DNA of 27,166 nt from a virus (Duplodnaviria > Heunggongvirae > Uroviricota > Caudoviricetes), in the IMG/VR virus record IMGVR_UViG_2526164690_000039. One strand, 5' to 3'. This document shows positions 18,001 to 21,000 of this stretch, piece by piece. Position numbers: made by a program. The stretch's first letter is position 1. Every line of letters begins with the position of its first letter.

Positions 18001-21000
18001 TTCAGAACATAACTGATACACAAAAGCATTGCGTAATACATCCAGTGATCTGGAAGTATTTCGGGGTTCCTTATATCTACCCACTCTTTAATTGATGCTG
18101 GGGTGATTATTATCAAGGCAATTAAAATAATAAGCATATGAATTAACTGTTGTAGCGTAAGACCACGCAGGAAGAAACGTAATAGTTCCTGCCACCAGTT
18201 ACTCATCGGTGAATCTCCATCATTCTCTCTGTAGGGGTGAATAGAGTTTATCCGATTTCTCGCTGTAGGGGTACACGAGAACCACCGAGCCTGATGTGGT
18301 TAAAAGACAGGCATACGAATAAACACTGCACTGTGTATTCATTCCAACGAGTGAATACACGGAGCAATGTCGCTCGTAACTAAACAGGAGCCGACTTGTT
18401 CTGATTATTGGAAATCTTCTTTGCCCTCCAGTGTGAGGGCAATTTTTTTGACGGAGGATATATGAGTGAAGTAACAGATTTAGTTGTTATTGAAAAAGCA
18501 AATGCAATGACTGTAATTTAGTCTGCCGACCAGATTGAAGAAATTCTTCAAAAGGTTGAACGTGAAGTTATGTCCTTTGTGCCTGATATCACAACGGCAA
18601 AGGGCAGAAAGGAGATCGCTTATCTGGCGTATAAAGTTGCGCAGACGAAAACATATCTCGATGGTCTTGGCAAAGACCTTGTTGCTGAACTGAAGGAAAT
18701 TCCAAAGCTAATTGATGCTAACCGCAAGACAGTGCGCGATCGCCTTGATGAACTGAAAGCCAAGGCGCGCCAGCCTCTTACTGATTATGAGGAAGAACAG
18801 GCGCGGATTAAAGCCGAAGAAGAAGCTAAGGCAGCAGCTGAAGCTCTCGCAAAGCAAATTGAGTCTGACCATGAAATAGCGATTTTGATGGATCGCGAAT
18901 TTGACCGCCAAAGAGAAGAGGCAAGACTCAAAGCGGAGCAGGAAAAGCGAGAGCATGAAGAACGCTTAAAAAGAGAAGCTGAAGAGAAAGCCAGAGCTGA
19001 AGCCGAAGCAAAGGCAAAAGCCGAAATTGAAGCAGCAGCAAGGCGAGAAGCAGAAGCTAAGGCCGCAGAGGAACGTGCAGAGCGTGAACGCATTGAAGCC
19101 GAGCAACGAGCACAGCGCGAAGCAAAAGAGGCAGCAGAACGAGCTGAAAGAGAAAAGCATGCGGCAATTGAAGCAGAACGCCGTAAAGCACAGGAGGAGG
19201 CAGAACGAATCCTGCGCGAGGCTGAAGCAAAAGAGCAAGCCAGAATAGCAGAAGAAAAAAGAATCAAGGACGAAGAAGAGCGTAGAGCAAAGGATAAAGC
19301 TCACCGGAAAGAAGTAAATAACAAAATACTTGCTGACCTTATCAAGGTTGGCGCATCAGAAGATGTTGCTAAAAATATCATAACAGCCATCGTAAAAGGC
19401 GAATTATTCGCAACAAAAATAACCTACTAATAAAACCAACATAAGGAACCACCCATGATTTACGCAATCGCGGGAGGCGCTCGCATGGGTGCCTTCCAAT
19501 TAAATGAATCTTTACTTGAACGAATCACCCGTAAATTACGTGACGGATGGAAAAGAGTTGAGGTCTTATTATGCGCAATGAAATAGCCATCAATCACCAG
19601 ATGCTTCGTGCTGCACAGAACAAGGCAGTAATAGCCCGATTTATTGGTGATTCAAAAATGTGGCTTGAAGCAAATAAAGCGATGAAATCAGCTATCAACC
19701 TTCCGTGTTATCGCAGGAAATGAGTTTTACAGATAACTGGTCAGACGAAGAATTCATTCGTCAGATGAAAGAATTAATCGGTAACGAAGGAGATATTCAT
19801 GTCACTTGCAACCACAGTGAAGGAGAGCAAGTTACAGAGGCGCATGTACACGCAGAAAGCTCTCTGGTATCGCCATAATGGTGACCGCGAAGGAATGCGG
19901 GTATGCCTTAATTTGTCCCGAGTCGAAGTATTAAATCAGCGTTATTTCCTTGGGCCGTGTCCATTCTGAGAACAATCATATGAGCAAAGAATTTTACGCA
20001 AGACTGGCAGCTATTCAGGAGAATCTGAACGCGCCAAAGAATCAGTACAACTCATTCGGCAAATATAAATACAGAAGCTGCGAAGATATTCTTGAAGGCG
20101 TTAAGCCGTTACTGAATGGCCTGTTTTTATCAATCAGCGATGAAGTTGTGTTGATTGGTGATCGGTATTATGTGAAAGCCACGGCAACTATTACCGATGG
20201 CGAAAACAGTCATACGGCAACCGCTCTTGCACGAGAGGAAGAAAGCAAGAAAGGAATGGATTCTGCACAAGTTACGGGAGCTACAAGCTCTTATGCACGC
20301 AAGTATTGCCTCAATGGTTTATTCGGCATTGATGATGCGAAAGATGCAGATACCGACGAGCATAAACATCAGCAGAACGCAGCAGCAAAGCAATCAAAAC
20401 CATCACCTACACCTGAACAGGTTCTAAAAGCATTCACTGACGCAGCAATGCAGAAAAACACCGTAGAAGAGCTTAAACAGGCGTTCGCCAAAGCGTGGAA
20501 GATGCTCGAAGGCACACCGGAGCAGCACAAAGCGCAGGACGTTTACAACATCAGACGAGACGAATTAGAAGGAGCTGCTGCTTAATGGCACATTCGATTA
20601 CTGTAAGACTAAACAAGCCCGCAAGAGAGTTTCAGACCGGGGAAAATATCGGATTCAACATCCGTGCTGGCGTTCAGTATTACGATCGCCAGACAAAAAA
20701 GAAAGAATGGACAAACTACAGCGCCGTTGTATTTGCCAAGCCGGGAGCGCAAGCGGATTACTACCGTAGTGTTCTTGTTGAAGGTGGCATTGTGGAAATT
20801 ACCGGAGAAAACATCAGGGTTGATGTTTATCAGGGGCAAAATGGTCAATCAATCACTCTTGAATTACTGAATGCAAAGATTGGATTTGCAGCTTCAGGAA
20901 ATGGCCCGCAGCAGCAAAGTAGTAACCAGCAGAACACTCCTGTATACGACGATTCCATCCCATTCTGATTTAGAAAAATAAGGATTTAATTATGCCAGCG

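Follow-up and report, generated by a model that had tools for sequence, protein, structure and literature searches.

The window analysed here (27,166 nucleotides from IMG/VR record IMGVR_UViG_2526164690_000039; Caudoviricetes) carries, at 18462-19430 on the plus strand, a conserved phage gene whose reading frame is broken by an in-frame amber codon. On comparison with its relatives, the interruption is a CAG-to-TAG nonsense mutation arising from a C-to-T transition at 18519, and not a leader peptide ahead of a shorter gene, because the relatives share the start codon, the glutamine codon at position 20 and a conserved N-terminus, and because the next methionine, Met37, is not conserved. Very probably the feature is a pseudogene of a conserved gene of the phage early left operon, and if not that, then still an allele that has lost its function. 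The interruption is already annotated in RefSeq and is not new; in near-identical records (99.9-100% identity), PGAP marks exactly 18462-19430 as a pseudogene under the name "cell envelope biogenesis protein TolA; internal stop".

Reading frame and local signals

The frame opens, as read from the sequence, at ATG 18462-18464, with the Shine-Dalgarno motif GGAGGA upstream at 18453-18458 (plus strand), which is invariant among the aligned homologues. Directly 5' of the gene, on the same strand, lies a terminator-like hairpin (18421-18449; 8-bp stem with five GC pairs, then TTTTTTT), and the upstream stretch that includes it is conserved in lambda, HK97, and many Stx phages at 97-99% identity (query positions 18-166). 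The amber TAG at 18519-18521 is codon 20 of the frame and follows the first 19 codons of the ancestral gene (MSEVTDLVVIEKANAMTVI; 18462-18518), the last of which carries a private TTT-to-ATT change (F19I) at 18516. What remains of the frame, codons 21-322 plus the stop (18522-19430), contains the next in-frame start at ATG 18570 (Met37), from which a mechanical open reading frame (ORF) of 286 amino acids runs to TAA 19428-19430, with a second TAA directly after it. An exact look-up of this 286-amino-acid product in the protein collection returned no entry. The first-pass annotation had reported the start, the GGAGGA, the preceding terminator, the TAG, and the same-frame continuation to 19430, all of which are borne out by the sequence.

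Ancestral state of codon 20

The uninterrupted gene is found in phages mEp213, HK633, APC_JM3.2, Huey, Louie, and Bas106 and in Escherichia coli CFSAN061762, with a length of 969 bp in all of these relatives except HK633 (903 bp). The start ATG, the ribosome-binding site, and CAG (Gln) at codon 20 are common to all intact homologues fetched, and the protein of Sf6 gene 33 is 100% identical to the intact consensus over residues 1-117, the span that this comparison covers. Among 64 aligned copies, position 18519 is C in 56, T in 7, and A in 1; TAG at codon 20 occurred only in copies bearing further lesions or private changes. The adjoining T-to-A change at 18516 is present in 3 of the 64 and replaces a phenylalanine that is invariant in the alignment of homologues of 65-78% identity.

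Conservation extends across the whole segment ahead of Met37. The first 36 residues are conserved in the 65-78% identity homologues from Enterobacter, Cronobacter, Citrobacter, and Salmonella, which keep the N-terminal pattern MSExTDLVVIE...F19, and also in relatives of 33-55% identity; Met37 is not conserved across the family when these relatives are included. The N-terminal domain aligns from about target residue 20 onward in 4,596 cluster representatives, which therefore carry the same N-terminal extension. Homologues that begin at the downstream ATG behind unrelated upstream sequence would have spoken for a separate downstream gene; instead, the N-terminus is conserved and begins at the same ATG.

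These comparisons show that the ancestral gene encoded a 322-amino-acid protein of the family of Sf6 gp33, mEp213 gp44, and phi80 gp39 (Agt/Mog). The C-to-T transition at 18519 turned Gln20 into an amber codon, and translation from the strong start at 18462 therefore ends after 19 residues. The first-pass annotation had left two accounts standing, a nonsense mutation that truncated the N-terminus and a short upstream ORF acting as a leader, and the shared ATG and CAG at codon 20 decide for a mutation within a gene whose true start is ATG 18462.

Fate of the downstream frame

Little or no product would be expected from the 286-codon frame, because its ribosome-binding site is weak and ATG 18570 lies 48 nucleotides beyond the TAG. 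The predicted energy of pairing with the anti-Shine-Dalgarno sequence is -3.6 kcal/mol before ATG 18570, compared with -9.5 kcal/mol at ATG 18462. Any product that did start there would lack the 36 conserved N-terminal residues.

Relative to the nearest CAG-bearing allele, the TAG lineage has four private substitutions, F19I (18516), S54Y (18622), A203E (19069), and V315L (19404), which are absent from all other copies. All four are non-synonymous and none is synonymous, and Ser54, replaced by Tyr in the window, is invariant across the whole family. The direction of these changes fits relaxed constraint. The gene would be silent in the lysogen and free to decay, as it follows a terminator within a pL operon that depends on N, in a lambdoid prophage that is itself decaying at the ybhC (att-lambda) site of the O26/O103/O111 group of Shiga toxin-producing E. 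coli (STEC). An IS600 element interrupts the gene in strain UTAK-23, and some O26-type strains have IS600 within it.

Several points weigh against this picture of a dead gene. Four non-synonymous changes out of four are too few for significance: neutral evolution would give this outcome with a chance of about 0.37, and the background ratio of the gene, 10:10 when the other copies are pooled, with a chance of about 0.06. The TAG allele is invariant across genomes of the STEC group, which leaves no variation there by which to judge selection on the downstream frame. Reinitiation at ATG 18570 may still occur at a low level, and the intact family owes its functional assignment to synteny and a single GenBank annotation.

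Alternative explanations for the interruption

The alternative that survives best, although we consider it improbable, is that a restart of translation at Met37 makes the amber codon tolerable, or even favours it, by yielding a truncated protein with some or modified function. The nonsense mutations seen all lie upstream of Met37 (TAG at codon 20 on two haplotypes and TAA at codon 30 in phage phiv205-1), although only 3 of the 21 codons that are one transition away from a stop fall within the first 36, and ATG 18570 is the first in-frame start beyond the TAG. The clustering is, however, subject to ascertainment bias, as it was a probe placed around codon 20 that brought up the second TAG allele; this leaves phiv205-1 as the one additional case free of that bias, with a chance of about 3/21. 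The pairing energy and spacing at ATG 18570 are unfavourable, and conservation runs the wrong way for a restart, being strong over residues 1-36 and missing at Met37 itself. In addition, the TAG lineages later gained frameshifts, IS600, and changes at invariant residues downstream, and other copies of the gene were inactivated by frameshifts well downstream of Met37.

Full-length expression through an amber suppressor tRNA or programmed readthrough is very improbable. A supE-type (glnV) suppressor would restore the wild-type residue, as the ancestral codon is CAG (Gln). However, supE is rare among E. coli isolates from nature, and termination is efficient at a UAG that has U as its next base. 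No tRNA gene was found in the window and no Rfam family matched 18000-19800 at E <= 1; the stop is missing from the intact homologues, hence there is no conserved recoding site; and the private F19I and S54Y changes would remain in the protein even if the stop were read.

Two further explanations are refuted. The local anatomy that would make the 19-codon ORF a leader peptide or upstream ORF regulating a gene from 18570 (good ribosome-binding site, short ORF, and long ORF in the same frame) belongs to this one allele, whereas the gene is one continuous ORF, conserved across the junction, in 45 of 54 full-length E. coli-type IMG/VR copies, in all intact phage copies, and in all distant homologues. 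Nor is the stop a sequencing or assembly error, as the exact 71-mer centred on the TAG is present in 111 independently assembled complete E. coli genomes, and 517 records match the 1,301-bp query with an identity of at least 99%. Two IMG/VR contigs and an Stx1a phage record contain the same 71-mer; the sources of the 71-mer-bearing complete genomes were human, bovine, or veal in all 10 listed of the 111.

Repeated inactivation of the gene

Having set these alternatives aside, we return to the nonsense mutation as one of several lesions that inactivate this gene. At least six distinct events account for the remaining 9 of those 54 IMG/VR copies (E. coli type, full length), all of which are disrupted; the loci compared were L019-L097, from a list that holds the best 80 of 564 and whose ranking favours intact copies. 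In those loci, no disruption was seen in about the same summed length (roughly 52 kb) of full-length cIII, kil, orf52, erf, orf127, and abc2. The excess has to be read with the caveat that the gene is rich in repeats and homopolymers and that some of the 1-bp indels may be sequencing errors; it could reflect higher mutability (the A6 run and short repeats) or selection for loss. In plaque-forming phages, the copies of the gene are intact.

The lesions are of several kinds. Phage phiv205-1 has an independent ochre mutation, CAA to TAA at codon 30, and its depositors annotated two hypothetical proteins; UTI89 and one IMG/VR copy (L073) have a +1 frameshift. Single-base deletions occur at three sites among the IMG/VR copies, and the A6 homopolymer at 19255-19260 (plus strand) is affected on two different backgrounds (del1@794 in L071 and L077). 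In prophages of extraintestinal isolates (GN02100 and 15 other records), TAG at codon 20 is combined with a frameshifting 14-bp deletion at gene position 469 (window 18930-18943), which falls in an imperfect 15-bp direct repeat of 2.1 copies detected by Tandem Repeats Finder at 18930-18959 (plus strand).

The GN02100 allele differs from UTI89 by a single C-to-T change and from the window allele at 16 positions. The two TAG alleles (L006/L095-L097 and the window) are 1 and 8 differences away from a CAG allele and 16 from each other, and, because each is nearer to a CAG allele than to the other TAG allele, the sequences favour recurrent mutation or a very short recombination patch over a single origin. 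Position 18519 is not in a CCWGG (Dcm) context.

Prophage setting and neighbouring genes

The window matches a lambdoid prophage adjoining ybhC, a site that we take to be the att-lambda region. Its best match, O111:H11 strain 88.0502, is 99.9% identical over 25 kb, and the same prophage is also present in O26:H11 and O103 strains. The early-left (pL) order on the plus strand is repressor, small ORFs, sieB (minus strand), the interrupted gene, cIII, kil, a 52-amino-acid ORF, erf, a 127-amino-acid ORF, abc2, further ORFs, xis, and int. The downstream early-left genes (19455-21285, plus strand) are intact according to the PGAP annotation of a 99.9% identical record: cIII at 19455-19586, kil at 19571-19723, the 52-amino-acid ORF, erf at 19980-20585, the 127-amino-acid ORF, and abc2 at 20992-21285, with erf and abc2 lying 0.5-1.5 kb downstream of the interrupted gene. 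As a group, these genes form the recombination module beside which the family is found in synteny.

Signs of decay are plain in the prophage. In the nin region, an insertion between ninF and ninE/ninB carries a transposase gene (9758-10966) that is IS4-like and of the ISVsa5 family; a DUF6645-domain gene (2350-4214) between the Q antiterminator and lysis genes is frameshifted, and the fragment adjoining it (4191-4432) has a frameshift and an internal stop. Three genes of the distal early-left region are reduced to truncated remnants, namely an ead/Ea22-like gene (22011-22430), a hypothetical gene (22570-22707), and a Lar-family restriction-alleviation gene (23184-23333), the ead/Ea22-like and Lar-family genes adding to the signs of decay. 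No stx genes are present between the Q and lysis genes of the window. In the interval separating the nin region from Q, the opposite strand carries a gene of the LpxR lipid A deacylase family (6849-7808), probably cargo that modifies the host.

In the Stx1a-converting phage LC744181, the left arm, corresponding to window 18328-25342 and including the TAG allele, is 97.7% identical and the immunity region is different; the dead gene therefore travels with a mosaic segment exchanged among lambdoid prophages. The amber codon itself is of little consequence, being one more inactivated gene in a decaying STEC prophage of the O26/O103/O111 type, and the TAG allele is a convenient lineage marker.

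Family membership and the E/A/K/R-rich region

A near-identical intact protein matches phrog_1376 with an E value of 1e-108, a group that PHROG places in the category "unknown function". The residues of the window product align with the N-terminal motif of the family, PD..T.KGR..I.S.A.KV...K..LD..GK ... R.PLT.(W/Y)E, with the invariant Ser54 changed to Tyr. The family layout is also present, consisting of a variable central region rich in glutamate, alanine, lysine, and arginine (E/A/K/R) and a conserved C-terminal domain of about 40 amino acids ending in Tyr. What the window gene lacks is the uninterrupted frame of about 300-330 codons from the conserved start, owing to the TAG at codon 20. 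On this sequence comparison, the gene is a family member by descent, a pseudogene rather than a functional member. Clustered at 50% identity, the family makes up about 4,600 groups, and Pfam has no model for it; the intact protein had no Pfam family and no NCBIfam TolA model at E <= 0.1, and Pfam and NCBIfam searches with 10 distant relatives returned no domain.

The E/A/K/R-rich helical region covers residues 108-285 (18783-19316, plus strand). The extreme composition noted in the first-pass annotation is real: E, A, K, and R make up 79% of residues 108-285 in the intact APC_JM3.2 homologue, from which the window differs there at few positions. Large hydrophobic residues account for 18 of the 178 positions, and opposite charges at i/i+4 spacing are found at 60 of 174. 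The proneness to length variation by slippage proposed for the region likewise agrees with the homologues, as those that are 90% identical or more are 245-333 amino acids long, with all indels inside the E/A/K/R region, and the 14-bp deletion described above falls within the 15-bp direct repeat. The indels span 11-77 amino acids (22 lost in HK633, an 11-amino-acid duplication in P0003, and 77 lost in the 245-amino-acid forms). Repeats at the DNA level are weak, Tandem Repeats Finder giving only a period-6 array (61% matches) and the 15-bp pair.

Two minus-strand ORFs overlie the region, at 18785-19267 (160 amino acids) and 18966-19304 (112 amino acids). We judged them a by-product of the GAR/GCN codon composition and set them aside, because this composition yields open antisense frames and because conservation is all in the plus-strand frame.

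The AlphaFold2 model built on a 22-sequence alignment (mean predicted local distance difference test score of 87.7) had three short N-terminal helices and a small C-terminal helix, between which residues 81-182 and 190-295 formed an antiparallel hairpin. With a shallower alignment the hairpin was replaced by a single helix of 227 residues (69-295). Fold searches returned generic helical bundles only, and a profile search of PDB sequences gave marginal, composition-driven matches only, to helices of myosin VI and zuotin (E values of 0.008-0.05). The label "coiled-coil" that the first-pass annotation gave to the region is not established, because large hydrophobic residues are few and the predicted structure varies with alignment depth. 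In the ancestral protein, a long E/A/K/R helix or hairpin would have joined two small domains, an N-terminal one that is helical and a C-terminal one, with no membrane anchor.

Position of the family beside recombination modules

Across divergent phages, the intact gene keeps a place next to recombination genes. In the Pseudomonas phages D3 and JBD44 the homologue is immediately upstream of Erf plus an exonuclease, and in phi80 and a Klebsiella phage it is immediately upstream of GamL, RecT or Bet, and Exo; in these four phages the recombinase gene lies about 0.3-3 kb downstream. In one Vibrio phage the order is reversed, the homologue coming directly after Erf and one small ORF. The homologue loci (L011-L015 and L066-L094) came from phages of Pseudomonas, Klebsiella, E. 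coli, and Vibrio and from uncultured viral contigs. A recombinase gene downstream of the homologue was likewise the arrangement in 23 of 23 divergent IMG/VR loci, 20 of them by direct tblastn or Pfam matches and 3 (L067-L069) assumed to resemble L066 on the strength of a shared cIII match. By tblastn, 13 of the 23 carried Erf, RecT, or Bet, and all 7 loci scanned by Pfam had an AAA_24 ATPase, presumably a Sak4-type recombinase, or a Rad52_Rad22-family protein.

This position suggests an accessory role of the family in phage recombination or in the handling of DNA ends. The synteny with four unrelated recombinase types would point to a general role of this kind, not one tied to a single partner. 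Text searches of a 2025 survey that covers the recombination modules of lambdoid phages had no match for agt, Mog, TolA, or "coiled". As a candidate analogue next to Sak4, we considered DUF1351 of Gram-positive phages, but it was absent from the region checked in one record, 80alpha, and the lead was dropped.

A broader account would join these observations, with the family acting as a general accessory of recombination modules and its repeated loss reflecting either selection against the gene in lysogens, in place of neutral decay, or an N-terminal truncation tolerated through restart at Met37. We regard this joint account as unlikely, if less so than any of the alternatives weighed above, and treat both the link to recombination modules and the gene-specific excess of inactivation as leads only. 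A loss-of-function allele is the reading that we keep for the window copy. The intact family deserves attention in its own right, with about 4,600 clusters, no Pfam model, and a fixed place beside Erf, RecT/Bet, Rad52-like, and AAA_24 genes.

Comparison with known systems

The name TolA, under which PGAP lists the gene, is misleading and should not be propagated. The likeness to TolA is limited to the Ala/Glu/Lys-rich helical stretch, similar in composition to TolA domain II. TolA identity was rejected on the lack of a TolA domain match in Pfam and NCBIfam, the lack of a membrane segment, and the phage early operon context. For a transmembrane anchor, the 19-residue Kyte-Doolittle mean would usually have to reach about 1.6, whereas its highest value here is 1.03; and the gene is located not in a tolQRA-tolB-pal operon but in a lambdoid prophage, with sieB and cIII on either side.

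The central region recalls the ER/K-type single alpha-helix domains, such as the medial tail of myosin VI, in its opposite charges at i/i+4 spacing and its few large hydrophobic residues. The single-helix model from the shallow alignment agrees with this likeness, whereas the hairpin from the deeper alignment differs, and the profile matches are composition-driven and not significant.

Close relatives are Sf6 gene 33, mEp213 gp44, HK633_043, and APC_JM3.2_47, none of which has a described function. They have the same start codon, ribosome-binding site, and neighbours (cIII and kil) as the window gene. The mEp213, HK633, and APC_JM3.2 proteins are 97-98% identical to the window product over the shared part, with 97-98% DNA identity over the locus, but they are intact, with CAG at codon 20; the HK633 protein is without 22 amino acids of the repeat region.

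A further comparison is with gp39 of phi80 (Lula) (YP_007947961, in NC_021190), which at 322 amino acids has the same length as the conceptual product of the window and is 49% identical to it over the full length (E value of 2e-41). GenBank annotates it as "Agt, anti-toxin for Gam / Mog, modifier of Gam", and the adjoining gamL is noted as "toxic without Mog"; by this annotation, the phi80 homologue would counter the toxic effect of GamL, which inhibits RecBCD. Literature searches on Sf6 gene 33 and on "modifier of Gam" yielded nothing relevant, and no gamL is present in the window. Both proteins have the three-part layout and both genes have an early-left place just upstream of recombination genes, although the phi80 gene precedes gamL-recT-exo and the window gene precedes cIII-kil-erf-abc2. 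The phi80 gene is intact, whereas the window copy has an amber codon at position 20.

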